Both the position numbers and the translations under genes were made by a program. From Bacillota bacterium (lineage in GTDB: Bacteria; Bacillota; Sulfobacillia; JABLXB01), in assembly GCA_013178305.1 (NCBI GenBank), contig JABLXB010000001.1, positions 656,253 to 688,252 on the forward strand: a DNA stretch of 32,000 nt, in the 5' to 3' direction. Of the stretch, positions 10,033 to 25,773 are shown one piece after another. How positions within the stretch are numbered: position 1 is the stretch's first letter; each line of letters begins with the position of its first letter. The notes beneath the pieces were generated by a model. That model made no database searches. It saw only the letters and a program-made list of their open reading frames with translations, and had not been told where the DNA came from.

Positions 10033-10043
10033 GGCTTCTGAGT

Positions 10044-10117: not shown

Positions 10118-10594
10118 GTGAGGATATTGTTCGAGATAAAGGACGAATACGTACTGGTCAGGCCTCGGGTGACAACACGGGACGACGTGATACTTATGTT
10201 GTCCGATGCGCTCGCGCGGCACGGCGCTGTCTCCCCCGAGTACGGGCGAGATGTCCTGCAGCGGGAGCAGCAATACCCCACCGGATTACCGACTCAGGGG
10301 ATCAAGGTGGCGATCCCCCACGCGGGATCCGAGCACGTCATCCGGTCAGCCATGGCGGTGGCCCTGCTGGATAAGCCCGTCACCTTCCACTGCATGGATA
10401 AGCCTGAGGAAGGCCTCCCTGTTCGGATAGTCTTCCTCCTCGCCAACAAGAAGCCCGACGAGCAGGTCAAGTTCCTGAGATCGATCATGTCCCTGTTTGA
10501 AGACGGGGCGAATCTGAGGAGTCTCCACGTTATGCCCGACGCGGCGTCGGTGTCGGCGTTCCTGCGTGACAGGATGGCCCGGGCCGCTGTCTGA
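10118..10594 (+). CDS. PTS EIIA component, type 2 (Mtl/Fru/Gat family)
   Basis: ILFEIKDEYVLVRPRVTTRDDVILMLSDAL...YPTGLPTQGIKVAIPHAGSEHV carries the EIIA-2 active-site His context (aIPH). Start placed at in-frame GTG 10118, giving 158 aa (E. coli GatA is ~150 aa). The track start 10058 lies in the hairpin. Confidence 0.8.
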   Translation: MRILFEIKDEYVLVRPRVTTRDDVILMLSDALARHGAVSPEYGRDVLQREQQYPTGLPTQGIKVAIPHAGSEHVIRSAMAVALLDKPVTFHCMDKPEEGLPVRIVFLLANKKPDEQVKFLRSIMSLFEDGANLRSLHVMPDAASVSAFLRDRMARAAV

Positions 10595-10617
10595 ATCCTC
10601 CAAAGAAGGCTGATCGT

Positions 10618-11754
10618 ATGGCTACCGCGAGAGATAGGGTGCTCGCCGCCCTCGACCATAAAGAGCCGGATCGTGTCCCACTGTGCCTCGGGGCGTCCGG
10701 TGCGAGTGTGACCGATGCCGTGTATTTCGCCTTGAAGACGCATTTCGGCATCGAAGGTGACGTGGAACCGTTCCGCAGCGGGCACGGCGACAACATATAC
10801 GACCCCCGCGTGTTCGACAAGATGGGCTGCGACTTCAGGCACGTGTTCCTGAAGTCGTCCCTGGCGTACAAAGCCCCGGTACTCCCCGACGGGAGCACCG
10901 TAAATGAGTGGGGCGTAGCGGTCAAGAAAGTCGGGATATTCAACGAATGGGTGAGTCACCCGTTGCAGCACGCGTCGCTCGCGGACCTCGACTCCTACCC
11001 GTGGCCCAAACCATACGAAGGACAGCGGGACCGCGGGCTGAAACAGACCACCCTCGACTACTACGAGAACACCGGATTCGCCATAGCCACGAGGTCGCCA
11101 TCGAGGGGGTTGTTCGATCTTGCTATACAGCTGCGCGGCTTCAGCGAGTTCGCGCTCGACCTCTACACCAACAGGAGGTTCGCCTCGGTGCTGCTGGGCA
11201 AGATCAACGAGGTGTTGATGGCTTTCTACGACGTGCTCCTCGACGACACCGGCCCCTACGTGCACATCGTCGAAACCCAGGACGACATGGGTCACCAGAA
11301 CGGGCCGTTCTTCTCGCCCAAGACGTTCAGGGAGTTTTTCAAGCCTCTCAGGCGGGAACTCAACGCGTTTATAGGGCGAAAGGCACCGAACGCCCGAATC
11401 TACCTCCACTCGTGCGGGGCCGTGAGCGAGTTCATAGACGACCTGATCGACTGTGGGATTCAGGTGCTCAACCCGGTGCAGCCGCTGGCGCGAGGCATGG
11501 ACACGACAACCCTGAAGCAGCGGTACGGCGCGGCGCTGACCTTCCACGGGGCGATCGACCTGCAGCGCGCACTGGCCGGCACGCCGGAGGACGTGGAACG
11601 AGAGGTCAAGACGAGGGTACGCGACCTGGCCCCCGGCGGCGGATACATCCTGTCCCCCGCGAACGTCGTCCAGGCCGATGTCCCGGTAAGCAACCTCATA
11701 CTGCTCTTTGACCTGGCGAGGAGGTACGGCGCCTATCCGATCTCAGTCGGGTGA
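10618..11754 (+). CDS. Uroporphyrinogen-decarboxylase (URO-D) family protein, MtaA/MtbA/CmuA-like corrinoid methyltransferase candidate
   Basis: 378-aa ORF. N-terminus RDRVLAALDHKEPDRVPL is typical of URO-D/MtaA-like proteins. Adjacent to a corrinoid protein, which favours methyltransferase rather than HemE function. AAGAAGG SD 8 nt upstream. Confidence 0.75.
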   Translation: MATARDRVLAALDHKEPDRVPLCLGASGASVTDAVYFALKTHFGIEGDVEPFRSGHGDNIYDPRVFDKMGCDFRHVFLKSSLAYKAPVLPDGSTVNEWGVAVKKVGIFNEWVSHPLQHASLADLDSYPWPKPYEGQRDRGLKQTTLDYYENTGFAIATRSPSRGLFDLAIQLRGFSEFALDLYTNRRFASVLLGKINEVLMAFYDVLLDDTGPYVHIVETQDDMGHQNGPFFSPKTFREFFKPLRRELNAFIGRKAPNARIYLHSCGAVSEFIDDLIDCGIQVLNPVQPLARGMDTTTLKQRYGAALTFHGAIDLQRALAGTPEDVEREVKTRVRDLAPGGGYILSPANVVQADVPVSNLILLFDLARRYGAYPISVG

Positions 11755-11758
11755 TCCG

Positions 11759-12069
11759 GTGGGAACCGCGCGCAGAGCGCGGCTGCCCCTAATACTCGTG
11801 GCGGGGGGCTCGTGCGGCAACGCGATGCAGCGAGCCGCCGAGCGCATCAGGCAGGCCTCCGAAAGCGCGGGCGTTCAGGCGCAGGTGCTCATCCAGAACC
11901 TCTGGGAGCGGGCCGAACCGGATTCGCGCGCCGACGTGATCGTCCAGATGTTCCCGTTCTTCTCCGCGCTGGATGTCCCTGTGCTGGACGGAAGGCCGTT
12001 CATCCTCGGCAAGGGCGAGGACGAGCTGCTCGCCAGGATACTCTCACTGATCTGCGAGGAGGCACGACA

Positions 12070-12073
<4 letters not shown>
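11759..12073 (+). CDS. Small EIIB(Gat/Cel)-fold-like protein with displaced cysteine (function unknown)
   Basis: RLPLILVAGGSCGNAMQRAAERIRQASESAGVQAQV...DVIVQ aligns by eye with GatB ([24 protein letters not shown]...). It has Ala at the phospho-Cys position and a Cys 3 residues later. GTG 11759 is 4 nt after the URO-D stop. Its stop overlaps the corrinoid-protein ATG (ATGA, 12070-12073). Confidence 0.5.
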
Positions 12074-12714
<641 letters not shown>

Positions 12715-12735
12715 GCGGCAGAGGACACGGCGCGC

Positions 12736-13875
12736 TCACAGTATATAGATGTCCGGAATCACGATTTTCCCCTTTTCGGTTGAGACCGATGTCCTCGGCC
12801 AGGTGCTCCCCATGGATGCAACCTCGAGCCCGTATTCGGTCAACAGAACCAGCTCTTCCACCTGTACCCCGCCCACCGTGATGAACCAGTCAAATGCCTG
12901 GTTGCTCTCGACCAGCATGTCTGTCCAGCATCGAGTTGGGTCCCCTACAAAGTAACCGGTTGGGCCGCCCTGAAAGTGCAACTCCCACTCGTCGGGGTAA
13001 CCCATCTCGGAATACCAGTTTTTCTGATGCTGAAGGATGCTGGAGTAAGCGACCCCATTTTCGAGCATTCCCAATACTTGACCTTCAATCGTTACCGCGG
13101 CGCGGTGAGCATCCCGGATTCTTCGTGGGGGCTCGCCAAGGCTGACCAGTCGATTGACGTTCGCGTGCAGTCCCCAGCGGCTCGAGGCTGAATGGATGAG
13201 GGCATACTTCTCCAGCCTCTTTGGGGATGGAAGCGCATGCCAGTATCTCTCCAGGCGATCATCACTGCCAACAATGATGACCTCCGGTTCAATTCCATCC
13301 AGTACCAAACATGAATGCAGTTGCCGCCCGATTTCGCTCTCGGACATCCCCGGACGCACCCAACGGGCTATTTCCTCAAGGATCAACGCGGTCTGGTGGC
13401 CGAGCCAACGAGAGCGGTCCAATTCCAGTTCACTCAGGGGTCCATGAACCCGCTGGATGTCCACCGCTTTCGTGCCGGGAAACCCGGCGTCCGAAGCGAT
13501 GTTTTTCCCCGCCAACCCGAAGGCTCCGGTTCTCGGATCACCCTGGTGCCATTTTGAGGCGATCGGTTCATAGCCCTGCCCGGGGATCTGTTCCTCGAGG
13601 ATTCGGGCCACATCCATAGTGAAGGCCAGCAGATATTGACGCTCGGGGGTAATCAACAGGTGGCCGAAGCCGTATTCCGTGTGTTTCAATACGTGATTGT
13701 CGCCGCCGCACGTAAGCCACGCGAAGTTGTCTCGCCGAGAGACTATTATCCCATCGAGGCGCTGCGATTCCATCCAGGATCTCAATCGTGTGATTCGCTC
13801 ACTCGCAACCGAATGGACCCTTGCGTCATCCTGAGTCACCGGAATTCTGCGGGACAACTCCTCCAGATAGATCAC
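12736..13875 (-). CDS. M24 (creatinase/prolidase-fold) family protein, possibly non-metallo
   Basis: 379-aa ORF. N-terminal creatinase/AMP_N-like region (RLRSWMESQRLDGIIVSRRDNFAWLTCG) and a C-terminal pita-bread-like region ending VQVEELVLLTEYG. By-eye alignment suggests several canonical metal ligands are substituted. Confidence 0.6.
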   Translation of the reverse strand: MIYLEELSRRIPVTQDDARVHSVASERITRLRSWMESQRLDGIIVSRRDNFAWLTCGGDNHVLKHTEYGFGHLLITPERQYLLAFTMDVARILEEQIPGQGYEPIASKWHQGDPRTGAFGLAGKNIASDAGFPGTKAVDIQRVHGPLSELELDRSRWLGHQTALILEEIARWVRPGMSESEIGRQLHSCLVLDGIEPEVIIVGSDDRLERYWHALPSPKRLEKYALIHSASSRWGLHANVNRLVSLGEPPRRIRDAHRAAVTIEGQVLGMLENGVAYSSILQHQKNWYSEMGYPDEWELHFQGGPTGYFVGDPTRCWTDMLVESNQAFDWFITVGGVQVEELVLLTEYGLEVASMGSTWPRTSVSTEKGKIVIPDIYIL

Positions 13876-14717
13876 TCCCGAGTCTCCATGTAGCCACGCA
13901 TTCGCTTAACGGCTTCCACTACAGCCGGGTAAGGATCGAACGAGTAACTCCATCCCAACTCCAACGTCAGGAATCCCTGGTAATCATATCTGCGAAGGAG
14001 GCCCATCATTTCCTCAAAATCGAACGTCCCATCGCCCGGGATAGCGTTTTGTTGCTCTCTCGAGTTGTTGTCGTTGACATGCACCTGCCAGAGGTACTCC
14101 CCCAGACCGTCCAGCGCCGGCTGAAGACCCTCTTTAGACAGGTTCAAGTGGCCTGTATCAATGACAACCCCAACCATGTCTGACTGCAGGTCTCGAATTA
14201 CCTGGATAGCTTGACTCGTGTGATTCAAATAGCCGCTCAATCTGGGGTAAACGACCTCGATCCCAAGTCTCATTCCACGCATTTCCGCATGATCACACAC
14301 TGTCTCCAGGCTACGGATGAAGGTCCCGCGGGAATCCTCCAGAGTCTGACCGTATAGAGTGTTAGTTGGGACCACCAGTACATGATGGGCTCCCATTAGA
14401 ACGGCATTATCGATGCAGTCTTTCATGTAATTGACGCTGTCAACACGAATTGCGTCCACGGGACTTGAAAGTGAAAACGGATAGCGGAAGAAGGCCGGCA
14501 ATACTGACACTACTGCTAACCCGCTACTCTCGATTCTCTTTTTCAACTCCGCGAGGGTCCCGGCTGGATAGTCGTTCCGAAACAGGTGTGGTCGCCCGCA
14601 CCAGAGATCAATTCCATCCAATCCCGCTTGGATGACCTGCTCCACAGCAGCGTCAAGTGGGTAATTCACGAATACCGATGTGGCGGTAGATATTCTCACT
14701 AAGATATCTCTCCTCAA
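13872..14717 (-). CDS. Sugar phosphate isomerase/epimerase (xylose isomerase-like TIM barrel, AP_endonuc_2 family)
   Basis: 281-aa ORF. GLDGIDLW..., LGIEVVYP..., VIDTGHLNL, VHVNDN and LTLEL blocks are typical of the family. TTG 14717 overlaps the upstream stop. GTG 14699 with a GGAGAG SD is an alternative start. Confidence 0.8.
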   Translation of the reverse strand: MRRDILVRISTATSVFVNYPLDAAVEQVIQAGLDGIDLWCGRPHLFRNDYPAGTLAELKKRIESSGLAVVSVLPAFFRYPFSLSSPVDAIRVDSVNYMKDCIDNAVLMGAHHVLVVPTNTLYGQTLEDSRGTFIRSLETVCDHAEMRGMRLGIEVVYPRLSGYLNHTSQAIQVIRDLQSDMVGVVIDTGHLNLSKEGLQPALDGLGEYLWQVHVNDNNSREQQNAIPGDGTFDFEEMMGLLRRYDYQGFLTLELGWSYSFDPYPAVVEAVKRMRGYMETRE

Positions 14718-15370
14718 ACAGGTCGCTGGTGAATCTGGTAGTCCTGCATGATCAATCGACGCATCAAGAGCTCGCGTCTCAGTCGCTCGGGATTGATGAC
14801 CACGGCCGCCGGCAAGCCATGATTGATCGAATGAACGGTTCTCTTTATGTCACTGTCCAGCAGCAAGCATTGCTCCGAAGGAACCTGAACCCTGTTGGGC
14901 AAGTAATAGAACACATCGGGGAGCACCCTCAACAATCGACTATCTTCCAGGCATATGATTCTCTCAGGTGGAAAGTGGAGGAGGACTTCCTGGGAAGACG
15001 GCAATTCCTTAAACCACGCTTCAGGCAGGTCAACAACCAACCATCGATCGACCTCGGCTTTGACTCGTGTGACTGCATCCAAAACGCCTGGAATCAACAC
15101 CAGTCGACTGAGCATTCTCTTGAGGAAGAGTTCAGGCGAACCTTCAATCCCGAGAGACCTCACAGCGACCTGGCAGAATTCCTGGCCGTCTATTCTCCCC
15201 AGGGCCAGGTCATCCCGCATTTCCCGGTATCGGGAGATGGCCGCCGGATTGATCCCGGCAATCCCAAACGAAGGCAATATTTCTGTAACGGCGGCATCAA
15301 GAGCCGGCAATAGAACCCCGCTTGTCCAGAAGAACAGTACCCGTGTTTCGCCCATGCGTCTATTCCCCAA
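14714..15370 (-). CDS. HAD-like fold protein lacking the DxD nucleophile motif
   Basis: VLFFWTSGVLLP occupies the position of HAD motif I (hhhDxDGTL). C-terminal CLLLDSDIKRTVHSINHGLPAAVV resembles HAD motif IV (vGDs..Di.aA..aG). ATG at 15355 (MGETRV...) is an alternative to the TTG at 15370. Confidence 0.5.
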   Translation of the reverse strand: MGNRRMGETRVLFFWTSGVLLPALDAAVTEILPSFGIAGINPAAISRYREMRDDLALGRIDGQEFCQVAVRSLGIEGSPELFLKRMLSRLVLIPGVLDAVTRVKAEVDRWLVVDLPEAWFKELPSSQEVLLHFPPERIICLEDSRLLRVLPDVFYYLPNRVQVPSEQCLLLDSDIKRTVHSINHGLPAAVVINPERLRRELLMRRLIMQDYQIHQRPV

Positions 15371-15782
15371 TCGCCTGAAGTATCAAATAGCGGGGTTCCT
15401 GGTCCACCTGGTCGTCGATCACCAGGATATCCTGATACGTGCCGAGCGCCAGCTTGCCATTCACGACAGGGGCACTCACCTGGGTCTGCATCAAGGCCGA
15501 ACGAATATGGGCGTGGCCGTTGAAGTCCACCGCGCGGATATGATGCTTGTAGGGGTAATTGGTAGGCACGATTCGCTCGAACACATCGCTTAGATCAGCA
15601 ACGATCCCCGACTCGTGTTCACCGATGATAACTGCTCCAGTCGTGTGCTGAAGAAATACGAGAACCTGGCCGTTTTTCAAACCGGAGGCTCGGACGAATT
15701 CCGCCACCCGGTCGGTGATGTTGATTACATTGAACCGTCCGTCCGACAGAAGCTCAATCTGCTCACTGATGACCATCGTCAT
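15360..15782 (-). CDS. YjbQ/UPF0047 family protein (secondary thiamine-phosphate synthase-like)
   Basis: 140-aa ORF. NITDRV...GQVLVFLQHTTGAVIIGE...DF...HIRSALMQTQVSAPVVNGKLALGTYQDILVID matches the YjbQ family pattern. ATGA overlap with the upstream gene. Confidence 0.85.
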   Translation of the reverse strand: MTMVISEQIELLSDGRFNVINITDRVAEFVRASGLKNGQVLVFLQHTTGAVIIGEHESGIVADLSDVFERIVPTNYPYKHHIRAVDFNGHAHIRSALMQTQVSAPVVNGKLALGTYQDILVIDDQVDQEPRYLILQAIGE

Positions 15783-16894
15783 GTCACCTTCCCGCGCCCG
15801 TGCAGGTCCCAGACAGCTTCAACGACATCTCCTCTCATCGCGTAAATTTGGTCGAACAGGATGACCGTTCCATTGGCGTCCTTCACCCACAACTCAACCT
15901 TATCTCCGATCTTTGGGGGCGGGCTGTCCGGCTGAATCCTCAACCTGCTGTGTTCTTGCGGCATTGAGAATACTTCGCCCCGCGGGTGTTTCACCTCGGG
16001 GAAACCATAGGCTAACGAAATAGACTTTCGGCCGACATCCAGGATGGCCAGGTCTTCGGCCCCCGGCCGGTCGGGCCTGCTGACGACAGTAGCCAGGACC
16101 GACAGCGCGCATTCAAATTCGCTCAGACCATTGTCACGGTAGGTAGTATCGTTGAAGATATAGGTGCCGGCCTGCAGCTCAGTAAGACCGTGCACTGAGC
16201 AGGCAGATTTGTAGGTGGCACTCCCGCCTCCACTAACGATCTCGACGGGGATTCCTGACTCGATCAGATCGTTTTTTACGGCAACCAGGATCTCATAAGC
16301 CTGAACGGATCGTTGTTCCTGCTCAACCTTGTTTTCTACGAAGGCCAGGTGCCCGTCATACCCCATGATGCCTCGAAATCGCAGCCCCGGGGTCGACAAA
16401 ATCGTCTTGACCATTCTCCTGGCCGGACCAAACGGCTCCACCCCGCAACGGTCATTGCCGATGTTCACTTCCACAAGGACACCGATCTGCACTGCCCTTG
16501 CTTGAGCCATCTCCGAGAGCATCTGGATATTCTCATAAGAATCGACGGCTACGATTACATCTGTGTAGGCCGCAAGATTGACCAGCCGTTGAACCTTGCG
16601 TGAACCCACCACCTGATTGGCTATCAGGATATCACGTATCCCCGCTGCGGCCAGAGTCTCCGCTTCAGATAGCTTGGACACCGTCAAACCGATGGCGCCT
16701 GCGCGCAATTGCATCCAGGCGAAAACGGCGGTCGCTTTGTAGATCTTGGCGTGGGGACGAAGGCTGATCCCGGCCGCACGGCAGAGGTCAGCCATTGTCC
16801 GAATGTTTCTTTCCACCGCCGCCAGATCCACAAGCAGTGCAGGGGTATCCAGATCGTACTTATGCAGTCCAACCTCATATTCGTGGCTACTCAT
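15779..16894 (-). CDS. Fold-type III PLP enzyme (alanine racemase N-terminal domain), D-threonine aldolase / D-serine dehydratase (DSD1)-like
   Basis: 371-aa ORF. DTPALLVDLAAVERNIRTM...LRPHAKIYK (PLP-Lys context RPHxK), GGGSATY, and a C-terminal beta domain. Confidence 0.8.
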   Translation of the reverse strand: MSSHEYEVGLHKYDLDTPALLVDLAAVERNIRTMADLCRAAGISLRPHAKIYKATAVFAWMQLRAGAIGLTVSKLSEAETLAAAGIRDILIANQVVGSRKVQRLVNLAAYTDVIVAVDSYENIQMLSEMAQARAVQIGVLVEVNIGNDRCGVEPFGPARRMVKTILSTPGLRFRGIMGYDGHLAFVENKVEQEQRSVQAYEILVAVKNDLIESGIPVEIVSGGGSATYKSACSVHGLTELQAGTYIFNDTTYRDNGLSEFECALSVLATVVSRPDRPGAEDLAILDVGRKSISLAYGFPEVKHPRGEVFSMPQEHSRLRIQPDSPPPKIGDKVELWVKDANGTVILFDQIYAMRGDVVEAVWDLHGRGKVT

Positions 16895-16903
16895 ACGGCC
16901 CCC

Positions 16904-17887
16904 TCAATACTCTGGAATCATTTCCCCGTCAACAACCTTCTTCTGGATTTCCATAATCTCGACAGGGTCAATGCATGCTCGAAGCACTGCGCGTACTACG
17001 TAATCACCTTTTCGCCCAACAAACACCGCCGACACGGATTTCTGCCCGGCCAGAGCCATGACCCGGTCTGCTAATGGTCGATAGGAAATGCCTGGACCCA
17101 GGAAATCCTCGACCTGCTCCGTATTCCAGACGATCGCGTCAATCTCACCCCTCTTGAGGAGCTGCGAAATCTGGATGAATGAAACCGATCGGGTTTCAAC
17201 GTCTTGACCGGCAAATTCCAGGTCCGTCAGCATGCAGTGATCGTGGGACTGCGGGTCTACAGCTACACGAAGCGGCCTTCCCGGTTCCGGCGGCTGATTC
17301 CGGTAGAACACACTGTATCCAGAAAGCCAGGTTGTCGGGGGCAGTGAAAGCAATACTTCGTTTTCTTGTCCGGTCAATTCTCCGGCGGCCAGTCCTGACA
17401 TTACCACGGCATGACAGCGGTTATCGTGAAGGGCTTTCAGGCGAGTCCGCGATCCGCGGATAAAGATCAAGTAGGCTTCCATCCCCGCCTTCTCAAATCC
17501 GATTTTCAGACCGGTTGCCAGGCCTTCAAACCGGCGGTGCATCGGCAGGGTCAGGGCAATTACCAGGGGACCCTGTCCCAACAGGTTCCACAACCTGCTG
17601 ACCGATATCCTGGTAAGATAGGACCCCATGTGCCCACGCCTCTGAATGTCGACCGCGCCCATATCCTGCAGGCCCCTGAGTGCCGTTGAGATCGCTCCCA
17701 CACTCATCTGCGTGGAAGACGACAACTCACGTATGCTGGGAAGACGCTTTCCCTCCCCCAATTGGAGGAAATACCCCGCCAGGCTCGCCTGCAAATCTCG
17801 AACGTTTCGCCGCCCAGAATTCTCCAGGTTCAACTCAAGTTCTCCATTCATATATCTATTTATCGAGGCTTCATGTACAAGAGTCAA
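16904..17887 (-). CDS. YhfZ-family GntR-type transcriptional regulator
   Basis: 327-aa ORF. wHTH LPSIRELSSSTQMSVGAISTALRGLQDMGAVDIQRRGHMGSYL, plus FEGLATGLK, DAIVWN and C-terminal VVDGEMIPEY. These parallel my recollection of E. coli YhfZ (IERRGRNGSYL, YEGLASGLK, DAVIWN, VVSGEQEPSY). Confidence 0.75.
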   Translation of the reverse strand: MTLVHEASINRYMNGELELNLENSGRRNVRDLQASLAGYFLQLGEGKRLPSIRELSSSTQMSVGAISTALRGLQDMGAVDIQRRGHMGSYLTRISVSRLWNLLGQGPLVIALTLPMHRRFEGLATGLKIGFEKAGMEAYLIFIRGSRTRLKALHDNRCHAVVMSGLAAGELTGQENEVLLSLPPTTWLSGYSVFYRNQPPEPGRPLRVAVDPQSHDHCMLTDLEFAGQDVETRSVSFIQISQLLKRGEIDAIVWNTEQVEDFLGPGISYRPLADRVMALAGQKSVSAVFVGRKGDYVVRAVLRACIDPVEIMEIQKKVVDGEMIPEY

Positions 17888-19389
17888 TGCCAGTCCTCGA
17901 AAATGCCCCCCAGAAGGACGGGCACAAACCGGCGATACTGTTCAAGACGCTCTTGATGCAGCCTGGCCCGCTCCGGACTTGGCTGGTGAGTACGGCTCGT
18001 CGCCGAGAGAGCAGAACTGGCTTCGTCGATATCACTGAAGACTCCCACGCCCAATCCGGCGAGAAGCGCTGCGCCGAATGTCCCGGGTTCTTCCTCCGCG
18101 GCGACCTCAATTGGGACGCCCATCATGTCAGACTTGAGCTGCGTCCACCATTCGGATCGGGTTCCACCTCCGGTTGCGCGGATTTGATCAACCAATACGC
18201 CCTCTTCTCGCAACAACGAAAGGGTATTCACATGGTCATATGCGATACTCTCCATGAAAGCCTGGACAATCTCTGCCGGTTGGGTTGCCAGTGTCAGCCC
18301 GATGAGCGCGCCGCGCAGCTTGCGCCCGCCACGCCAGTAGAGCATCGCACCGGAAAGATACGGCAGTGCCAGGACAGGGCTGGGGTCGCCTCCACGTCGG
18401 GACAGCTGTTCTGTGAACTCTGCGATCGAGAGGCTGACCGTATCGCGCGCCCAGTTAAGGACCGCATTCCCGGTCGGGCAGATCGCGTAAACCGATCGTT
18501 CGATTCGACCAAAATGCGGCGTTATCGACAATCCCCGAAGCAGCATCGATGGAGTAGGGAATTGCGTTGTCGGAATGAGCATGTTCTCATACGAGCCGCT
18601 AATCAGGCAGGCCGTACCCAGGCGGGAAGCCCCCGCACCGATTCCTGCGCAGTTCAGATCGTGCCCACCTGACACAATGACAAGGTCTGATGGAAGGCCG
18701 AGTTCATCGGAGACCCTCCGGAGAACCGGGCCTATCGCGGTTCCGCCAGGAAGAACCTCCGGCAGAAACTCCGGCGGGATTTCATACTCGGCGAGCCGTT
18801 CAGGCGACCAGGCATTGGTCTTCAAGTCGTAAACCAGCCATCGAGCAACCAGGCTTGGTTCACTGACATTCCGTCCGCACAGTCGCTGCGTAAGGAAGCC
18901 ATGCCAATCCGGGTAACCTCTCGCCTTATGAATCACCTCAGGATGGTACTTCCGCCACCAGAGCAGCCGTAATACCGGATCCATCCTCTCCCGTAAGTGT
19001 CCGCAGGAGAGCTCCCATGCTTCAGGCAGGGGCGCTTCATGAAGGGGCACGCCAGCGGGATGAGCCTCAAACTCCGATCCACGCACATCTGCCCCCATTA
19101 TGTTGTTTCCGAGGGGAGTCCCGTCTTCATCGGCCGGAAAGTTCTCCCGCCCCGAGGCACTGATGGCGAGCGCTTTCGGGGGATCGCGGCGGACCAATTC
19201 CATCCGCATTAATTCGCAAAGCCCGCGAGCCGCGGCCCGCCAGACCTCTTCGGGATCCTGTTCCCACAAACCGGGAGCCGGGTGCAGCGGAGAAATATCG
19301 TGCTTAACCCCGGCCAGGAATCTCCCTTCTTCGCTGTATGCAGAGATCTTCACTGAACTCGAGCCCACGTCAATCCCAAATAGGCTCAT
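17884..19389 (-). CDS. FGGY-family carbohydrate kinase (xylulokinase-like)
   Basis: 501-aa ORF. FGIDVGSSSVKISAY...GLWEQDPEEVW N-terminal signature and C-terminal ATGGGTRSEWWTQLKSDMMGVPI signature of FGGY kinases. Confidence 0.9.
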   Translation of the reverse strand: MSLFGIDVGSSSVKISAYSEEGRFLAGVKHDISPLHPAPGLWEQDPEEVWRAAARGLCELMRMELVRRDPPKALAISASGRENFPADEDGTPLGNNIMGADVRGSEFEAHPAGVPLHEAPLPEAWELSCGHLRERMDPVLRLLWWRKYHPEVIHKARGYPDWHGFLTQRLCGRNVSEPSLVARWLVYDLKTNAWSPERLAEYEIPPEFLPEVLPGGTAIGPVLRRVSDELGLPSDLVIVSGGHDLNCAGIGAGASRLGTACLISGSYENMLIPTTQFPTPSMLLRGLSITPHFGRIERSVYAICPTGNAVLNWARDTVSLSIAEFTEQLSRRGGDPSPVLALPYLSGAMLYWRGGRKLRGALIGLTLATQPAEIVQAFMESIAYDHVNTLSLLREEGVLVDQIRATGGGTRSEWWTQLKSDMMGVPIEVAAEEEPGTFGAALLAGLGVGVFSDIDEASSALSATSRTHQPSPERARLHQERLEQYRRFVPVLLGGIFEDWH

Positions 19390-19400
19390 GAGTCTCTCCC

Positions 19401-20165
19401 CTATTCGGCATTGGTAATGAAACCGCCGTCCACCAGCAGCTCCGCACTGGTAACATAGCTCGCGTCTTCACTGAGCAGGAAAGCAACCGCGCCGGCGATT
19501 TCGGATGCCTCACCGATCCTGCCCATCGAAATCCGCTCTTCGTAGTAGGCGCGAGCCGGGCCGTTTGGATCCAGCAATTCAGCGCTCATATCTGTGAGTA
19601 TTGCGCCTGGCAGAACGACATTGACCCGGATTCCGTGTCTTCCCAGGACCTGCGCGAGAGCCTTTGTCATCATCCAAATCCCGGCTTTAGTTGCACAATA
19701 GACGGTCTGCTCCTTGGCGGAAACCCAGGCGGAAATTGATGACACGGTTACGATCGCCCCGCCGTGCCCTTCTTTGATCATCTGTTTTGCAGCCGCCTGG
19801 CAGACCACCCAGGTACCCCTCAAATTCGTTTCCTGAATACGGTTGTAGTCATCGATAGTGGTTTCATCCCATTTGAGCAACGGGTTGATTGCGGCATTAC
19901 TCACAAGGAAGTCCAACCGGCCTCCGATTCGGGCAACCTCCGAGACCATCGAGACTACCTGTTCCGGTTCACGCATGTCAGCCGCTACCGGAAACCCCTT
20001 TCCGCCAACCTTCTTTATCCTGTCGAGGGTCGCGGCTGGATCGCTCGTTGGACGATGATTAACCGCCACGGTTGCGCCCTCGGATGCCAGCCGGATGGCG
20101 CAGGCCTGTCCAATTCCCCGGGTAGCGCCTGTCACCAACGCCACTTTGCCATCAAACCGTCCCAT
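19401..20165 (-). CDS. SDR-family oxidoreductase
   Basis: 254 aa. TGATRGIG cofactor motif, NAAI, and catalytic S...YCATK. Confidence 0.9.
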   Translation of the reverse strand: MGRFDGKVALVTGATRGIGQACAIRLASEGATVAVNHRPTSDPAATLDRIKKVGGKGFPVAADMREPEQVVSMVSEVARIGGRLDFLVSNAAINPLLKWDETTIDDYNRIQETNLRGTWVVCQAAAKQMIKEGHGGAIVTVSSISAWVSAKEQTVYCATKAGIWMMTKALAQVLGRHGIRVNVVLPGAILTDMSAELLDPNGPARAYYEERISMGRIGEASEIAGAVAFLLSEDASYVTSAELLVDGGFITNAE

Positions 20166-20200
20166 TTCCCCTCACCTTTTGACCGGATTGTTTTGGTCTT

Positions 20201-20977
20201 TCACTGTGCAATTCGAGAGAGGGCTCCCGGCAAGGTTTGCCCGCCGTCGACCGGGATCACCGCTCCCGTCACAAAAGATGCCTCGGCACTGGCTAACCAG
20301 ACAATCCAGGCCGCCAACTCCTCCGCTGTCCCCATCCGTTTCAGAGGCAGCTCACGGGTCATCCGCTCGTAAGCGCCCGCCACATCGTTCCCTGCCCAGG
20401 TCAGGTGGATCGGGGTGTCAACCGGGCCGGGGGCAATGCAGTTCACCCGGATGCTCGGAGCCAGTTCGGCCGCCAGAGACCGGGTCAGGTATTCCAGGGC
20501 CGCCTTTGAAGTCCCGTACATTGATTGCCCAGGGATCGCCAGCGAACCAGAAGAGGACGAAATATTGATGACAGACGCTGACGCCGATTTTCTCAAATGC
20601 GGCAAGGCCGCCTGGATCAAGAAATAGGGCGCTCGTACATTTACTGCCATGTGCCGGTCGAAAAGCTCAAGCGTAGCCCGGTCAATGGGCTTATGGTCTA
20701 TAGCAGCCGCGTTATTGACTACGATATCCACCCGCCCCCAGGCATGCACGACCTGGTCGACAATGCGAGCTGGGGCTGATGGCTGCCCAAGATCAGCCGG
20801 AACCGGCATGGCCTGCCCACCCCTGTCGCGTATTGAACGCGCCACCTCTTCAATGGGTTCAATTCTTCTTCCAACCAAAGCAACCGCCGTCCCAATAGCG
20901 GCCAGACCCCGTGCGGCAGCGGCCCCGATTCCCGTCCCACCCCCGGTAATAATCGCGACCCGTTCGACTTGTGTCAT
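20201..20977 (-). CDS. SDR-family oxidoreductase
   Basis: 258 aa. TGGGTGIG cofactor motif, NNAA, and catalytic S...YGTSK. Confidence 0.9.
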   Translation of the reverse strand: MTQVERVAIITGGGTGIGAAAARGLAAIGTAVALVGRRIEPIEEVARSIRDRGGQAMPVPADLGQPSAPARIVDQVVHAWGRVDIVVNNAAAIDHKPIDRATLELFDRHMAVNVRAPYFLIQAALPHLRKSASASVINISSSSGSLAIPGQSMYGTSKAALEYLTRSLAAELAPSIRVNCIAPGPVDTPIHLTWAGNDVAGAYERMTRELPLKRMGTAEELAAWIVWLASAEASFVTGAVIPVDGGQTLPGALSRIAQ

Positions 20978-21027
20978 GAATGGTTCTCCCCTCTTGCACT
21001 GCGCGCTCGTTGGCTTCGCTCCACCGG

Positions 21028-21981
21028 TCAGAATACTGCGATCGGGTTAAATGGAGAACCTGTCCCCTTCGGCAGGCGCAATGGGGCAATGACAACCATG
21101 AACTCAAATCGGCCTTCCTGCTCGCTCACTTGCGCCAACTCTTCCAACTGGAGGCTGTCCGCACATACCATTCCCATAGCGGTAATCTGAAGTGGATGGA
21201 TCGGATATTGTATTCCCTCAACGTACGATGGGACGACCTCACCATCTCCGTCGGGTAAGAAAACAGAGACCTTCCGCTCATGCAGCAGGGTCAGGCTGTA
21301 GGGATCAAGGCCCGCACGCCCCTCGCCTGTATAACCGGGATCCCAGGCTCCAAGCTCCAGGCGCCGGCGGTGATGCCCGGTCCGGAAGACCATGATGTCG
21401 CCCTCGTCGAGCCGGACGCCTTCAGCTCGTTCAACAGCTTCGATTTCATCGCGGGTAACCGCCTCGCCGGGTTCCAGCCATTTCACACCCCGGTAGCGCG
21501 GAACGTCGATCAGCACACCGCGTCCAACTATCCCGTGAGCATACGTGGTGATATCGTACCGGTCTGCACCCCGGACGGTCACGGATGCAGCAGGCCATCC
21601 ATTGTAAAGCGATCCCTTGTATGCAATGTGGCACAGCGCATCGATGTGAGTGTGGCAGTCGCCGTGGAATTGCATGCCGAGGAAATCGGTCGCAAACCGC
21701 AATTCTCCGGAACCAATGTCGATATCGTGCGTATTTGCCATGTAGTGAATGGCCGGATTCGGGTTATCCGGGCCGGCGAAGGCATTGATCGGGATCGCCA
21801 TGGATACGCTGCGACCGCTCCTGACAAGGGCTGCGGCCGCCCTTATTTTCTCAGGCGTAATATAATTCAGAGTACCCCTGTCATCATCAGGTCCCCATTT
21901 GCCCCAGTTCTTGAGGGACTCGAACAGCCGGTCAAAATCGTCTATGGAGATCTCGGGGCGCGTAGATTCGAGCATTTCCAT
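21028..21981 (-). CDS. Cyclase-family protein (kynurenine formamidase/isatin hydrolase-like metal hydrolase)
   Basis: 317 aa. WGPDDDRGTLNYIT and FHGDCHTHIDALCH (HxxxHxD...H motif of the putative-cyclase family PF04199, from memory). Confidence 0.7.
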   Translation of the reverse strand: MEMLESTRPEISIDDFDRLFESLKNWGKWGPDDDRGTLNYITPEKIRAAAALVRSGRSVSMAIPINAFAGPDNPNPAIHYMANTHDIDIGSGELRFATDFLGMQFHGDCHTHIDALCHIAYKGSLYNGWPAASVTVRGADRYDITTYAHGIVGRGVLIDVPRYRGVKWLEPGEAVTRDEIEAVERAEGVRLDEGDIMVFRTGHHRRRLELGAWDPGYTGEGRAGLDPYSLTLLHERKVSVFLPDGDGEVVPSYVEGIQYPIHPLQITAMGMVCADSLQLEELAQVSEQEGRFEFMVVIAPLRLPKGTGSPFNPIAVF

Positions 21982-22002
21982 CCTTCCTCACCGGCCGGTT
22001 AC

Positions 22003-22040
22003 CTGGCCCCGTCCGGACAAGTGCCAATGGACGGAGCCAG
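22003..22040 (-). promoter_or_regulatory. Intercistronic GC-rich hairpin downstream of the binding-protein gene
   Basis: Plus-strand CTGGCCCCGTCC (22003-22014) pairs with GGACGGAGCCAG (22029-22040), 11 of 12 positions complementary. It sits in the 79-nt gap between the SBP stop and the cyclase start. No U-tract. Confidence 0.5.
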
Positions 22041-22060
22041 GGCAACACCGACTAATATTG

Positions 22061-23128
22061 CTACTGTTTCTTGGCGTTCTTCTCCGCCTCTTCCATGTAT
22101 TGCATCACCGCATCAACGTTATCGGGCGTAACGATCAACAGACCCGAATCGATCGTGCGAGGCATCCAGTTGCAGGTCCAGGGGTCAATCCCGCCGATGC
22201 GGATCGAGTTGTTGTGCCAGCTGTAAAGAAAGAACAGGGCCATGTAATTCATGACGTCGTATTTTTCCATCGTGACCATCTGGATTTTACCATTCTTGAT
22301 GTTGTTCAGGAACTCGCGTCCGGCCTCATTGCATGTCACAATAACCTTCCCAGACACACGAGCCTCATCTAGAGCGGCAATAATGCCGGGGCCGGCCTCG
22401 GAGTCAAGGCCGATAATGCCCGTCAGGTTCCGGAAGGCTTTGAGAAGGGCTCCAACCCGCTGCGCAGCCAGGTCTGCCTGCGAGTCGTTGTCTTCTTCCG
22501 CTACTACCGTGATTCCCGTCCCTTTGAGGGTATCTTTTATGCCCTGCCGTGAACGCTGCATGTTTTCATTTTGAATTGGGGAGATCACCGCAACCTGTCC
22601 GGTAGTCAATCCGCGTTTCTTGTGCTCCGCAATCTGGTATTCCGCCATGCGGACGCCAAGCTGGTACCAGTCCGTGCCTACATAGGCAAGACGGTTGGAT
22701 TTGAAGAGATCCCCATCCGTTACAACCACCGGCACCTTCATGGCGATGGCCTTATTCACCGGCTCGGTCAGGGCCGGATCCCAACCACCCACCACGATGA
22801 TCCCGGCCGGCTTGCGGGCGGCTTCCTGCTCCACCGTGGCGATGTAAGCCGCCAGGTCAACGGTCGTCGGGCCGGCTTTGCGAACCTTTACGCCAAAGTC
22901 CCGGGCGAAGGCGTCCAGGGCGGGATAAACCCGTTCCACAAAAAGCGGCAGGCTGGAACACTGAGAGATCCACACGTATTCCTGATTAGCGCGGTCAGAC
23001 CCACCGATCTTGCCAACCTGGGTAACCTGCTTGTCCTCGCTTTTTGGTGGAGTTGTGGCAGCCTGGGAACAACCTGCTAGCAGAACAGCGAGCAACAGAA
23101 TGGAAATTGCCCTCCACATAGTCTTCAT
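22061..23128 (-). CDS. Sugar ABC transporter substrate-binding lipoprotein (periplasmic-binding-protein type I, ribose-like)
   Basis: Start moved to ATG 23128 (AAAGGAG SD 9 nt upstream), giving MKTMWRAISILLLAVLLAGCS with a lipobox LAGC. The mature part has the PBP-I pattern (IIVVGGWDP..., VPVVVTDGD). The track start 23215 would overlap the permease. Confidence 0.85.
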   Translation of the reverse strand: MKTMWRAISILLLAVLLAGCSQAATTPPKSEDKQVTQVGKIGGSDRANQEYVWISQCSSLPLFVERVYPALDAFARDFGVKVRKAGPTTVDLAAYIATVEQEAARKPAGIIVVGGWDPALTEPVNKAIAMKVPVVVTDGDLFKSNRLAYVGTDWYQLGVRMAEYQIAEHKKRGLTTGQVAVISPIQNENMQRSRQGIKDTLKGTGITVVAEEDNDSQADLAAQRVGALLKAFRNLTGIIGLDSEAGPGIIAALDEARVSGKVIVTCNEAGREFLNNIKNGKIQMVTMEKYDVMNYMALFFLYSWHNNSIRIGGIDPWTCNWMPRTIDSGLLIVTPDNVDAVMQYMEEAEKNAKKQ

Positions 23129-23211
23129 CTTGAGATACTCCTTTCGGGATACTCTTCTTGCCGGCCCCTGTCCTCGGTATGTCGGTGGTTCTTTCACCCC
23201 TCTCTCCAGGT

Positions 23212-24210
23212 TCACCGTCTGCTCCTGCCGATCTGATCAATACCAAGTGCCGCAAGCAAGACAATGCCGACCACGATACTCTGCCAGAAGACTGGCACGC
23301 GGGCAATGATCAAGGCGTTCTGGATAAGAGACATGAATAGTACAGCAAGAAGCGCGCCGGGGATCGTGCCAACCCCGCCTGTCAAGCTGGCGCCGCCAAG
23401 GATCGCCGCTGTGATCGCACGCAGCTCTGTCCCTACCCCGGCAAGCACAACCGCGTTGCTTAACCGCGACGCCAACAGGGTTCCAGCCAGGCCAGACAGC
23501 AATCCCATCAGCGCAAAACCGGCGAAAACCACTCTGTTCACCTTGATTCCCGACAGCATGGCAGCCTTCGCATTGCTGCCGATGTAATAGAACTGGCGGA
23601 AATACCGGGTCCTGCTCATTGCGAACCAGGCGGCTAACGCAACGATCAGCATGACCCAGAAAGGCGACTGCAACCCGAGGATCATCGCCTGTCCGAACGG
23701 GCGGAATCCTTCAGGCAGGTTGGCTACACCGGAAGGAGAAACGAGCTGGGTGACGCCTCGCAAGATGTTCTGCATAGCCAGGGTGGTAATCAGCGCATTG
23801 ATCCGTAGCCGGGTGACGATCAGGCCGTTGACCACGCCAACGAACAGGCCGGTAAGAACGCCTCCCAGGAACCCCACTCCGGGGGGTAGACCCCACAGCT
23901 TGACCATGGTACCGGCCATAATCCCGCCAAAGGCCAGCGTGGCCCCAACAGAGAGATCAAACATGCCGGCAACCAGCAGGATCATCATCCCGACGGTGAG
24001 GATGCCACTCTGAGCAGCGTCCAACAGAACGGCAGTGAAATTGTCCCAGTGGGGAAACGCTTCGGGATGCTGGTACGTCATATAGCCGCCGAGCAGAGCC
24101 AGCAAGACGATGAGCAGCAAGACCCGGTCCTCGGCAACCCGTTTGGCTATTCGTCTTGGCAGAGAATTACTGGATTGTCTTCGCGCGGTGTATTGCGCTG
24201 TCTGTGGCAT
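23212..24210 (-). CDS. Sugar ABC transporter permease (RbsC/BPD_transp_2 family)
   Basis: 332-aa polytopic ORF with GxFDLSVGA and GG.SL.GG blocks typical of ribose-type permeases. Confidence 0.85.
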   Translation of the reverse strand: MPQTAQYTARRQSSNSLPRRIAKRVAEDRVLLLIVLLALLGGYMTYQHPEAFPHWDNFTAVLLDAAQSGILTVGMMILLVAGMFDLSVGATLAFGGIMAGTMVKLWGLPPGVGFLGGVLTGLFVGVVNGLIVTRLRINALITTLAMQNILRGVTQLVSPSGVANLPEGFRPFGQAMILGLQSPFWVMLIVALAAWFAMSRTRYFRQFYYIGSNAKAAMLSGIKVNRVVFAGFALMGLLSGLAGTLLASRLSNAVVLAGVGTELRAITAAILGGASLTGGVGTIPGALLAVLFMSLIQNALIIARVPVFWQSIVVGIVLLAALGIDQIGRSRR

Positions 24211-24213
24211 CGC

Positions 24214-25773
24214 TTATCGGATTCCTCCCTCTGCTACCGCGCTCATGGGCGTGGCCATCTGCAGAATGGCAACTTCATCTACAGCGCCTGCATCTAATTC
24301 CCCCACTGTACGACCTTCGGACATCACAACAATGCGGTGGGCCAGCGCCAAAACCTCTGGTAGATCGGATGATACTACCAGCAAGGCTACACCTTCGCGA
24401 GCCAAATCCCGTAGAATTGCATACAGATCCGACTTCGCACCGACATCGACCCCTCTTGTCGGTTCATCCACAATAAACAGTCTCGGTTTGCGCGCCAACC
24501 ACTTCGCAAGCAGGACTTTTTGTTGATTACCCCCGCTTAAGAACATGACCTCACGTTCCACGCTGGGGGTAGCCACCCGGAGCGCCTTACAGGACCGAAC
24601 CGCAAGGTCCTTCACCATCCGGTTATCAATGATGCCGTTTCGGCATACAGCATCCATGTTAGTAGCCGCGATATTGCTCGAGATACTCGAAGCCAGGAAT
24701 AGACCTGCTTCACGCCTGTCCTCAGGCAACATCCCAATTCCGGCTTTCATGGCATCAACCGGATGGGTTGGAACCAGCTCTCTCCCGCCGATCCGAATTG
24801 TGCCGGAAATGATGTCCCGAATACCGAATATGGCTTCACATAATTCTGTGCGACCCGCTCCGACTAGACCTGCGAGGCAGACAATTTCTCCTGCGCGAAC
24901 CCTGAGCGACGCGCCCTTAACCGGAGGGGCGACCAGGTTCTCAACCTCAAGAACGACTGGGGCTTCCGCTGGAGCCCGCCTGCTGTCCCGTTCAAATGAC
25001 AGTTCTCGCCCCACCTCAAGGTGGATGATCTCGTCGGGCGAAGTCCTGGCGGTCTCCCGAACACCGGTGACCTTCCCGTCCTTGAGTACTGTCACCCGAT
25101 CGGCAACTTCAAAGACCTCTCCCAGCCGGTGGGTCACATAGATGATTGCCACCCCACGGTCCGCCAGGCGGCGGAGCACTTTAAACAGGTGGCGGGACTC
25201 GTTGATCGTTAACGACGACGTTGGTTCATCGAGCATGAGGATTTGTACGTCTTGAGAGAGGGCTTTCGCGATTTCAACCAGTTGGCGTTGGCCGGGAGAC
25301 AACTGAACAACCGGTGTGGATGGATCGATGAAGACATCGAGGTCTTTCAAGAGGCCCTCGGTGATTCCGCGCATCCGGGGGAAATCAACCACGCCCATTG
25401 ACGTGACCGGTTGGCGTCCAGCGAATATGTTCTCCGACACATTTAACGGAGGAAACAGGCTCCCCTCTTGAAATACGATTGCTACTCCCGACTCCTGCGC
25501 AGCCTTTTCATCTGCTGGCGAATAAGGCCTTCCCTTGATTTCCATGAAGCCCTTATCTGGACGGTACACCCCGGCGATGATGTGCATGAGGGTTGATTTC
25601 CCTGCGCCGTTCTCCCCGACGACCGCATGGACTTCCCCCGGGGCAACCTCGAACGATACGTCATCGAGGGCCACTACGCCTGGAAAGACCTTGGTTACAT
25701 GATGGACACCTAATTGCGGAGGAATTCGAGAAGCATTGTCGACGACCTGGTTTGGCACAGCCAACTTTCGCAC
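24214..25773 (-). CDS. Sugar ABC transporter ATP-binding protein (tandem ATPase, RbsA/MglA-like)
   Basis: 519 aa with two ABC cassettes: GENGAGKST / LSPGQRQ / ILMLDEPT and a degenerate second P-loop GLVGAGRT / LSGGNQQK / LFIVDEPT. The exact start (GTG 25773, TTG 25764 or GTG 25758) is uncertain. Confidence 0.9.
   Translation of the reverse strand: MRKLAVPNQVVDNASRIPPQLGVHHVTKVFPGVVALDDVSFEVAPGEVHAVVGENGAGKSTLMHIIAGVYRPDKGFMEIKGRPYSPADEKAAQESGVAIVFQEGSLFPPLNVSENIFAGRQPVTSMGVVDFPRMRGITEGLLKDLDVFIDPSTPVVQLSPGQRQLVEIAKALSQDVQILMLDEPTSSLTINESRHLFKVLRRLADRGVAIIYVTHRLGEVFEVADRVTVLKDGKVTGVRETARTSPDEIIHLEVGRELSFERDSRRAPAEAPVVLEVENLVAPPVKGASLRVRAGEIVCLAGLVGAGRTELCEAIFGIRDIISGTIRIGGRELVPTHPVDAMKAGIGMLPEDRREAGLFLASSISSNIAATNMDAVCRNGIIDNRMVKDLAVRSCKALRVATPSVEREVMFLSGGNQQKVLLAKWLARKPRLFIVDEPTRGVDVGAKSDLYAILRDLAREGVALLVVSSDLPEVLALAHRIVVMSEGRTVGELDAGAVDEVAILQMATPMSAVAEGGIR

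Follow-up and report, generated by a model that had tools for sequence, protein, structure and literature searches.

The window analysed here, a stretch of 32,000 nucleotides (nt) of contig JABLXB010000001.1 from a Bacillota bacterium (positions 656,253 to 688,252), carries thirteen co-oriented open reading frames on the minus strand between positions 12736 and 25773, which very probably constitute one catabolic operon that is controlled by its own YhfZ-family regulator and was acquired by transfer. In gene order they encode an ATP-binding cassette (ABC) ATPase, a permease, a lipoprotein substrate-binding protein, a cyclase-family hydrolase, two short-chain dehydrogenases/reductases (SDR 1 and SDR 2), an FGGY-family kinase, a YhfZ-like regulator, a fold-type-III pyridoxal 5′-phosphate (PLP) enzyme, a YjbQ protein, a protein of haloacid dehalogenase (HAD) fold, a xylose-isomerase-like TIM barrel and a protein of M24 fold. 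An earlier note on this DNA had listed the same genes under the same family names; all are present, and each family was confirmed with Pfam and NCBIfam, the HAD-like protein by way of its family profile. The intergenic gaps range from −4 to about 83 nt along the thirteen genes, and a scan of the operon for internal terminators returned none that was convincing. Between the last stop of the operon (12736) and the end of a convergent corrinoid-protein gene (12714) lie 21 nt (12715-12735), in which the scan found no terminator-like hairpin. The earlier note had also described the locus as an orphan catabolic unit centred on the regulator and the PLP enzyme; the unit and its two central proteins are borne out by the results below, whereas the orphan status, a proposed amidohydrolase step, an overlap of the regulator and kinase genes and the supposed oddity of the regulator's position are not.

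Related loci (designated by L numbers) were collected by scanning species-representative genomes with an alignment of the PLP enzyme, which gave 80 loci that were mapped by BLAST against the window proteins; the resulting gene-context maps combine these BLAST matches with a limited number of Pfam scans. The order of 12-13 genes given above, with or without the terminal M24 gene, recurs in at least ten other loci, and the subgroup to which the window PLP enzyme belongs was found in 29, so that the locus is no orphan. Because the same order was found in many unrelated contigs, the arrangement is far beyond chance. Homologues of the regulator with 45-77% identity are common in metagenomes, the few named ones being from Anaerolineae. 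Three architectures (types A, B and C) were recognised among the mapped loci, and type A, the window-like form, comprises L033 (a Bacillota metagenome-assembled genome, MAG), L034, L035, L039, L043 and L052 together with the metagenome loci L006, L007/L008, L009 and L010. The loci that conserve the order are mostly Anaerolineae MAGs, and rearranged variants occur in Chloroflexota, Spirochaetota and Acidobacteriota.

In type B (L012, L049, L050, L053 and L099) the YhfZ-PLP gene pair is divergent from genes for YjbQ, an FGGY kinase, a second YjbQ, the HAD-like protein, the TIM barrel, an apionate-lactonase-family protein and an SDR, and uptake is by an SBP_bac_5- or SBP_bac_1-type transporter. 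Type C, found in Acidobacteriota, combines SDRs, an amino-acid permease, a Dak1/Dak2 kinase, a DeoC-family aldolase, a paralogue of the PLP enzyme, an AraC protein and an apiosidase-like hydrolase, with a cyclase-family protein (63-64% identical) present only sometimes. At least 20 Acidobacteriota loci (L081-L112, e.g. L093:3648-17735) have such a type C cluster with a 'Y-S-D' PLP paralogue, often beside TonB-dependent receptors, and this cluster appears to be uncharacterised. A further form in Spirochaetota has two PLP paralogues, a cyclase or an FGGY kinase, and aldehyde:ferredoxin oxidoreductases; in L041 (6361-11119) and L042 (2760-11122) the two paralogues, both of the D-threonine-aldolase family, carry the D-A-N and Y-T-P forms of the active-site motif, and a glyoxalase-fold protein and a radical-SAM/SPASM protein are encoded there as well.

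The regulator matched PF14502 (HTH_41, 52.5 bits) and PF14503 (YhfZ_C, 171.6 bits), both above the gathering scores, and narrowly missed the cut-off of NF041241 (YhfZ_full; 252 vs 260 bits), by which scores it is classed as a member of the YhfZ family and not as an E. coli-type equivalog. Its longest reading frame starts at TTG 17887; an in-frame TTG at 17833, preceded by a GGAG Shine-Dalgarno sequence, yields a protein of 309 residues (16904..17833, minus strand), and YhfZ homologues are 307-309 residues long. With this probable start about 50 nt separate the regulator and kinase genes, and the 4-nt overlap seen in the earlier note is probably an artefact of the start codon. The same note had found it unusual for a regulator to be embedded in its operon, but a mid-operon position is the rule for this type of cluster, and in 21 of the 29 related loci the YhfZ gene either immediately precedes the PLP gene or is divergent from it.

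Upstream of the ATPase gene, a promoter-like site (TTGATC-16-TGnTATCAT, 25870-25843, minus strand) is followed directly by a candidate YhfZ operator, TGTTC-N8-TGAAC (25842-25825), and by further GTGAAC half-sites that extend to about 25808. A conserved layout of −10 box, TGTTCA-N7/8-TGAACrTTC and another (G/T)TGAAC about 8 nt on precedes the ATPase gene in L006, L008, L009, L010, L035, L044, L045 and L052, and it recurs in the intergenic regions between YhfZ and the divergently transcribed genes of L012, L049, L050, L053 and L099. The core pattern has two matches in the window where 0.09 are expected, the second of which (27010-27026) lies within an unrelated gene. Among all fetched loci, the pattern occurs in 19 YhfZ-linked loci and at roughly the chance rate in the approximately 60 loci without YhfZ, which ties the motif to this regulator family. 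Its place upstream of the first transporter gene supports one regulated unit that begins with the transporter genes. One of the 19, L011 (8986-12265), has quite different enzymes: its YhfZ homologue of 42% identity, with the operator pattern directly upstream (9945-9963), adjoins a RuBisCO-like protein and a HAD hydrolase, together with a class-II FbP-type aldolase and the E1/E2 set of a 2-oxoacid dehydrogenase. The host genome also encodes a second YhfZ paralogue (34% identity) within a canonical yhfS-yhfT-yhfZ-php-yhfX-yhfW cluster elsewhere (L013, G000:C17:100000-119999, approximately 6646-14012), in which php belongs to the phosphotriesterase family and the yhfW-like gene encodes a mutase. 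This host thus pairs a YhfZ regulator with a fold-type-III PLP enzyme at two loci; the operator pattern had no match at the canonical yhf locus.

The GC content of the cluster is 0.565, compared with 0.632 and 0.642 for its two flanks. In most related loci the cassette has a GC content of about 0.54-0.57 and the flanks one of 0.43-0.57; taking L006, L009, L010, L034, L035 and the window together, the cassette stays at about 0.54-0.57 and the flanking DNA spans 0.43-0.64. A cassette composition that holds steady despite such different surroundings suggests recent spread between hosts of differing composition. No YhfZ orthologue was matched in three genomes of the same family, whose counterparts of the flanking genes are 36-57% identical and not syntenic. 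The HAD-like protein had no orthologue in any of 300 sampled genomes of the host phylum and a strong one in only one of the 301 genomes sampled from the class to which the Anaerolineae reference belongs, which makes the distribution of the cluster patchy everywhere. In a maximum-likelihood tree, the PLP protein of the window groups with those of L006 and the Bacillota MAG L033 (98/93 support), and this group nests inside an otherwise Chloroflexota clade. Mobility genes were not seen. From its composition and phylogeny, the operon appears to have been acquired horizontally from Chloroflexota.

The first three genes specify an importer of the monosaccharide type. The ATPase (24214..25773, minus strand, as are all genes of the operon) has two fused ABC_tran domains of the ribose/arabinose type; its best NCBIfam matches are AraG, XylG, AlsA and RbsA, all under their equivalog cut-offs, and its orthologues in type-A loci are 66-73% identical. 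The permease gene (BPD_transp_2, 23212..24210) starts 3 nt past the ATPase stop. The binding protein (Peripla_BP_4, 22061..23128) likely starts at ATG 23128, to judge from a Shine-Dalgarno sequence and a signal peptide that ends in the lipobox LLAGC. Its nearest solved structures are monosaccharide-binding proteins at only 77-93 bits, for which reason the substrate is not readable from it.

Two SDRs and a kinase are encoded downstream. SDR 1 (20201..20977) passed the cut-off of the NCBIfam subfamily NF005559 'glucose 1-dehydrogenase' (229.5 bits, cut-off 215). SDR 2 (19401..20165) matched best the L-rhamnose 1-dehydrogenase Lra1 (239 bits, under the cut-off of 400), is likewise sugar 1-dehydrogenase-like and has orthologues of 68-86% identity. 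The FGGY-family kinase (FGGY_N and FGGY_C, 17884..19389) could not be assigned to a subfamily, scoring much alike (103-110 bits) against glycerol, xylulose and gluconate kinases; it reached none of the equivalogs XylB, GlpK, GntK, LsrK, AraB and FucK, the best being XylB with 191 vs 380 bits. A Dak1/Dak2 kinase stands in for it in the Acidobacteriota variant. Homologues of 2-keto-3-deoxy-6-phosphogluconate (KDPG) aldolase or PfkB were absent within 10 kb in all 29 loci of the PLP subgroup, and a cis-encoded 2-keto-3-deoxygluconate kinase/KDPG aldolase route was dropped on these grounds; two KDPG-aldolase homologues are encoded elsewhere in the host genome.

The cyclase-family metal hydrolase (21028..21981) contains a PF04199 domain (59 bits) and matched PDB entry 5ibz, a protein of unknown function, with 157 bits. 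It is the best conserved protein of the cluster (63-89% identity), its motif HGDCHTHIDALCH is invariant, and its metal motif is a variant, DCHTHIDALCH as against HxGTHxDxPxH, in which the first His is replaced by Asp; the paralogue in L031 has the canonical motif. The earlier note had taken this protein for an amidohydrolase-like step, but three independent contexts place the family in a lactonase slot. First, in the type-B loci, and in L045 with its otherwise type-A backbone, the cyclase gives way to an apionate-lactonase-family protein or the related DUF6786. Second, the paralogue in L031 is the sole lactonase candidate in a classic oxidative cluster. Third, on the Streptomyces canus plasmid NZ_CP108710.1 (L130, 7141-13329) a glycoside hydrolase of family GH15 and a cyclase-family protein (47% identical) are encoded 4 nt apart, with a gluconokinase and a GMC oxidoreductase nearby, a context that suggests a gluconolactonase-like activity for the family. 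These contexts suggest that the protein holds the lactonase slot, not the amidase slot, and we propose that it acts as a sugar-lactone hydrolase. The literature searched contained nothing that links PF04199 to lactonases. The Thermotoga inositol pathway, which pairs a ring-opening hydrolase with the epimerase IolO, was considered and dropped, as no supporting paper was found and the lactonase swap fits better.

The PLP enzyme (Ala_racemase_N and D-ser_dehydrat, 15779..16894) belongs to the D-threonine-aldolase/DSD1 family. Its nearest solved structures are the D-threonine aldolases 7dib (201 bits) and 4v15 (193 bits) and also the 3-hydroxy-D-aspartate aldolase BhcC (6qkb); with these and with 3anu it shares the same two-domain fold over the full length (166-201 bits). 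The PLP lysine is kept, the RPHAK motif aligning with Lys59 of 4v15, whereas the metal ligands His347 and Asp349 of 4v15 are Asp339 and Asn341 in the window enzyme and His193 is Phe. Apart from a few, all of the 29 YhfZ-linked orthologues have the corresponding motif WVxDANxT. This D-A-N form is confined to these gene contexts, and the D-A-N subgroup is monophyletic (99/98 support); other subgroups have H-G-C (as in DSD1), Y-S-D (Acidobacteria) or H-x-D (the aldolase type). The BhcC equivalog NF045642 was not reached (237 bits, cut-off 690). The domain architecture and PLP lysine of D-threonine aldolases are thus present and their metal ligands and His193 absent, and by these residues the enzyme is a member of the superfamily in a separate, new subgroup and not a D-threonine aldolase sensu stricto.

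The next three genes encode YjbQ (UPF0047; Pfam and TIGR00149; 15360..15782, overlapping the PLP gene by 4 nt), the HAD-like protein (14714..15355, 213-218 residues) and the TIM barrel (AP_endonuc_2, 13872..14717), a putative epimerase or isomerase. In related loci the YjbQ gene always directly precedes the gene of the HAD-like protein. The latter itself matched no Pfam or NCBIfam family, but a profile of its family, which has 437 representatives in a 50%-identity library, matches PDB entries 3cnh (E 1.6e-14) and 2i6x and YihX, which identifies a HAD fold; 10 of 123 family members match PF00702. A Trp aligns with the nucleophilic Asp of motif I (DxD) in 3cnh, and the sequence FFWxxGV extends across the family, so that the protein has the fold of a HAD phosphatase without the Asp of motif I; we call it the pseudo-HAD protein. 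The best NCBIfam match of the TIM barrel is the fructoselysine 3-epimerase FrlC at 125 bits (cut-off 305), and IolO, psicose 3-epimerase and hydroxypyruvate/2-oxo-tetronate isomerases were matched under their cut-offs as well; the nearest solved structures are MJ1311, TM0416 and ketose 3-epimerases. In L031 (G336:C9:70500-90499, 146-10502), which comes from the same Anaerolineae genome as L009, the triad follows genes for an ABC importer, a GFO/IDH/MocA dehydrogenase, an enolase-superfamily dehydratase, the cyclase paralogue, a PfkB kinase and a KDPG aldolase, with the acid-sugar dehydratase in the place of the window's PLP enzyme. Since it stands here beside a complete nitrogen-free oxidative pathway, the triad of TIM barrel, YjbQ and pseudo-HAD is a portable three-gene module.

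That this triad occurs without the PLP enzyme in L031, and that the YhfZ-PLP pair of type B is transcribed divergently from the other genes, would fit an adjacency by accident of transfer, for example of a sugar-acid module fused to an unrelated D-amino-acid module made up of YhfZ and the PLP enzyme. We consider such an accident very improbable, for both parts stay linked across at least three rearranged architectures and four phyla, the YhfZ-linked operator precedes the transporter and sugar genes, and the D-A-N form of the PLP enzyme was found only in these contexts.

The last gene (12736..13875) encodes an M24 'pita-bread' fold protein that matched PF00557 (Peptidase_M24, 35 bits, cut-off 23) and PF01321 (Creatinase_N, 27.5 bits). 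In comparison with the prolidase 3q6d, four of its five metal-ligand positions are changed: the two Asp positions hold His and Asn, the His position holds Gly, and the first Glu falls in a gap. The second Glu alone is retained, so that the dinuclear metal site is lost. It is an accessory member of the cluster, present in only about five related loci (L009, L010/L038, L035 and L044); in L040 an apiosidase-like glycoside hydrolase stands in its place. Its presence bears on a sugar-amino-acid conjugate as the substrate (an O-glycosyl-serine or -threonine, a glycosylamine, or an Amadori or Heyns compound), from which the PLP enzyme or the M24-like protein would free the amino acid and the sugar enzymes would take the glycone. 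The best NCBIfam match of the TIM barrel, FrlC, points the same way, as do the peptide-/opine-type SBP_bac_5 transporters of the type-B loci and the β-eliminations carried out by DSD1-type enzymes. However, the FrlC match lies far under its cut-off, no FrlB-type deglycase, FrlD-type kinase or amine oxidase was found among the thirteen proteins by Pfam or NCBIfam, an M24 gene in about five loci is not a core step, and the transporter of the window is of the monosaccharide type. A conjugate is accordingly ranked as a rival, and as an improbable one.

We instead favour the catabolism of an amino sugar, to which we assign a probability of about 0.4. The gene content, its conservation, the cis-element, the transfer signal and the active-site differences described above are observed; from them we infer the substrate, the order of steps and each reaction. 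The thirteen genes would form one inducible operon, repressed by its own YhfZ-family regulator, which would bind a TGTTCA-N7/8-TGAACA operator overlapping the transcription start. The ribose-type ABC system would import a nitrogen-bearing monosaccharide, most simply a 2-amino-2-deoxy-aldose; one SDR would oxidise C1 to give the lactone, which the cyclase-family hydrolase would open to the 2-amino-2-deoxy-aldonate. This product is a β-hydroxy-α-amino acid, i.e. of the substrate class of this PLP family. The PLP enzyme would then cleave it, in the favoured version by a retro-aldol reaction that yields glycine and an aldose two carbons shorter, or, as the main alternative, deaminate it to a 2-keto-3-deoxy acid. 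The TIM barrel would isomerise or epimerise the small sugar, the second SDR would adjust it, and the FGGY kinase would phosphorylate it for entry into the pentose-phosphate or triose pool. YjbQ, pseudo-HAD and the TIM barrel would come with the pathway as a portable module, and the metal-less M24 protein would be an optional extra.

A retro-aldol to glycine and a shorter aldose would explain why the 29 loci have no KDPG-type aldolase or PfkB nearby, and also the FGGY or Dak kinases, TIM isomerases, RpiB, split transketolases and aldehyde oxidoreductases in the neighbourhood: RpiB and a split transketolase adjoin the cluster in L009, and split transketolases do so in L036, L047 and L050. The deamination route is possible because the host has its KDPG-aldolase homologues elsewhere and aldol cleavage could occur in trans. 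The earlier note had proposed an amino sugar, a glycated amino acid or a sugar-amino-acid conjugate; a nitrogen-bearing sugar is still the most coherent choice, given the PLP enzyme, the amino-acid permease of type C, and the class-III aminotransferase and GNAT protein encoded beside the PLP gene in the type-B loci L050 and L053.

Several points weigh against the amino-sugar scheme. The PLP enzyme lacks the His/Asp metal ligands and the His193 that D-threonine aldolases use on the β-hydroxyl, so that aldol cleavage is not assured and a dehydratase, an epimerase or another reaction is possible. The binding protein, with its best structural relatives at 77-93 bits, names no substrate, and the scheme gives YjbQ, pseudo-HAD and M24 no role. 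Hallmarks of the pathway of D-apiose, a nitrogen-free sugar, also lie nearby: apiosidase-like hydrolases (PF13204) in or beside three architectures (L040, L049/L050 and Acidobacteriota loci), the apionate-lactonase family, split transketolases, and the RuBisCO-like protein adjoining a YhfZ homologue.

The same hallmarks speak for catabolism of a branched or short-chain nitrogen-free sugar, D-apiose or a related furanose, in which the PLP enzyme would serve a side reaction or another co-substrate. Following threonate/apionate logic, the sugar would be converted by an SDR to the lactone, by the cyclase to the aldonate, by the second SDR to the 2-oxo-aldonate, by the TIM barrel to the 3-oxo-aldonate and by the FGGY kinase to the phosphate, decarboxylation of which would give a ketose phosphate. 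Such a route gives a use to both SDRs, the cyclase, the TIM barrel and the kinase, and agrees with the apionate-lactonase-family protein that replaces the cyclase in type-B loci, the split transketolases and RpiB among the neighbours, the RuBisCO-like protein of L011 and the weak matches of the TIM barrel to 2-oxo-tetronate/hydroxypyruvate isomerases. It leaves unexplained, however, the PLP enzyme, which accompanies the regulator more constantly than any other protein (21 of 29 loci) and whose chemistry needs an amine substrate, and it is at odds with the amino-acid permease of the Acidobacteriota variant. Nor was any Pfam or NCBIfam match to a DUF1537 kinase, a RuBisCO-like protein or a decarboxylase, or any ApnO-type annotation, found among the thirteen proteins. 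We therefore regard a nitrogen-free sugar as unlikely, though somewhat less so than a conjugate.

Within the preferred class of nitrogen-bearing sugars, the substrate may be apiose-like, with an amino group that is either present from the start or added later, although we know of no such compound. In a more specific and still doubtful version, GH140-like hydrolases would release from glycans a sugar that bears an amino group and is possibly apiose-like or a furanose, and this sugar would enter a route not described before. The D-A-N enzyme, as a new metal-site variant of the D-threonine-aldolase family, would perform C-C or C-N cleavage and the TIM/YjbQ/pseudo-HAD triad a novel sugar transformation. 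If the triad does so, this would be the first physiological role for the widespread YjbQ/UPF0047 family.

The set of genes is compact, conserved and apparently mobile, and its predicted operator and soluble binding protein make discovery of the substrate feasible. Three groups of proteins, YjbQ/UPF0047, the Asp-less HAD family and the D-A-N subgroup, gain a pathway context, and PF04199 'cyclase' proteins seem, on these data, able to act as sugar lactonases. The link between the YhfZ family and a DNA motif may be of use for the yhfS-Z cluster of E. coli, which has long resisted explanation, and the operon may explain how Anaerolineae and related anaerobes use a hitherto unrecognised component of plant or microbial glycans.

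The earlier note could name no matching pathway, and we concur: the literature searched describes none and assigns no function to this gene set, YhfZ or UPF0047, and the cluster lacks defining features of the known systems. The known oxidative routes for D-apiose and D-apionate (Carter et al. 2018, as summarised in PMC13753588) share with the window cluster a ribose-type ABC importer, an opening by sugar dehydrogenase and lactonase, and a later kinase step, and further likeness lies in the apionate-lactonase family of the type-B relatives and in the apiosidase-like, split-transketolase and RuBisCO-like neighbours. By Pfam and NCBIfam, however, the window cluster has no ApnO annotation, DUF1537 kinase, RuBisCO-like protein or OiaC decarboxylase, and it has a PLP enzyme, YjbQ, an Asp-less HAD protein and an FGGY kinase instead. 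The L-glucose/L-galactose pathway of Luteolibacter (PMC12632266) was rejected as a model, having only the logic of dehydrogenase and epimerase in common and no PLP enzyme, FGGY kinase or YjbQ.

Among systems with a PLP enzyme, the Salmonella lyase DgaE is the only characterised route found in which such an enzyme processes a 2-amino-2-deoxy-aldonate (PMC9529869), the intermediate also proposed here. The window cluster differs in having a PLP enzyme of fold type III, ABC uptake, an FGGY kinase and no aldolase. DgaE has another PLP fold type, the dga substrate enters through a phosphotransferase system and is phosphorylated in the process, and the dga operon includes a gene for a KDPG-type aldolase. 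Pseudomonas reportedly has a PLP- and Mn-dependent D-glucosaminate dehydratase with an aldolase side activity. With D-threonine aldolases, DSD1 and BhcC, the window enzyme shares the two-domain fold and the RPHAK lysine, but their His-x-Asp or His-x-Cys metal site is Asp-Ala-Asn and the equivalent of His193 (4v15) is Phe.

In the erythritol, tetritol and tetronate pathways, EryA is an FGGY kinase, EryC and OtnI are TIM-barrel isomerases and EryI is of the RpiB type. These pathways, partly summarised in PMC13753588, resemble the window cluster in the pairing of an FGGY kinase with a xylose-isomerase-like TIM barrel and, near some relatives, in RpiB and transketolase, an analogy that suggests a C4 sugar phosphate as the end product. 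They differ in that the cluster reached the equivalog cut-off of none of these enzymes and has no EryB-type dehydrogenase, and in that they have no counterpart of the PLP enzyme or of the dehydrogenase/lactonase pair.

The E. coli cluster yhfZ-yhfY-yhfX-yhfW-php-yhfU-yhfT-yhfS, still annotated as putative, likewise associates a YhfZ-family regulator with a fold-type-III PLP protein and has an unknown substrate, as the earlier note had said, but yhfZ and yhfX are separated by yhfY and are not adjacent as stated there, and all other genes differ from those of the window cluster. The frl operon is set apart by the FrlC score (125 vs 305 bits) and by its SIS-type deglycase and PfkB kinase, neither of which occurs in the window cluster. 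Judged by these sequence comparisons, the cluster is distinct from the frl and dga systems, from the known apiose pathways and from the yhf genes of E. coli; by its gene families it is a binding-protein-dependent operon for oxidative sugar catabolism with enzyme subfamilies that are as yet unassigned.

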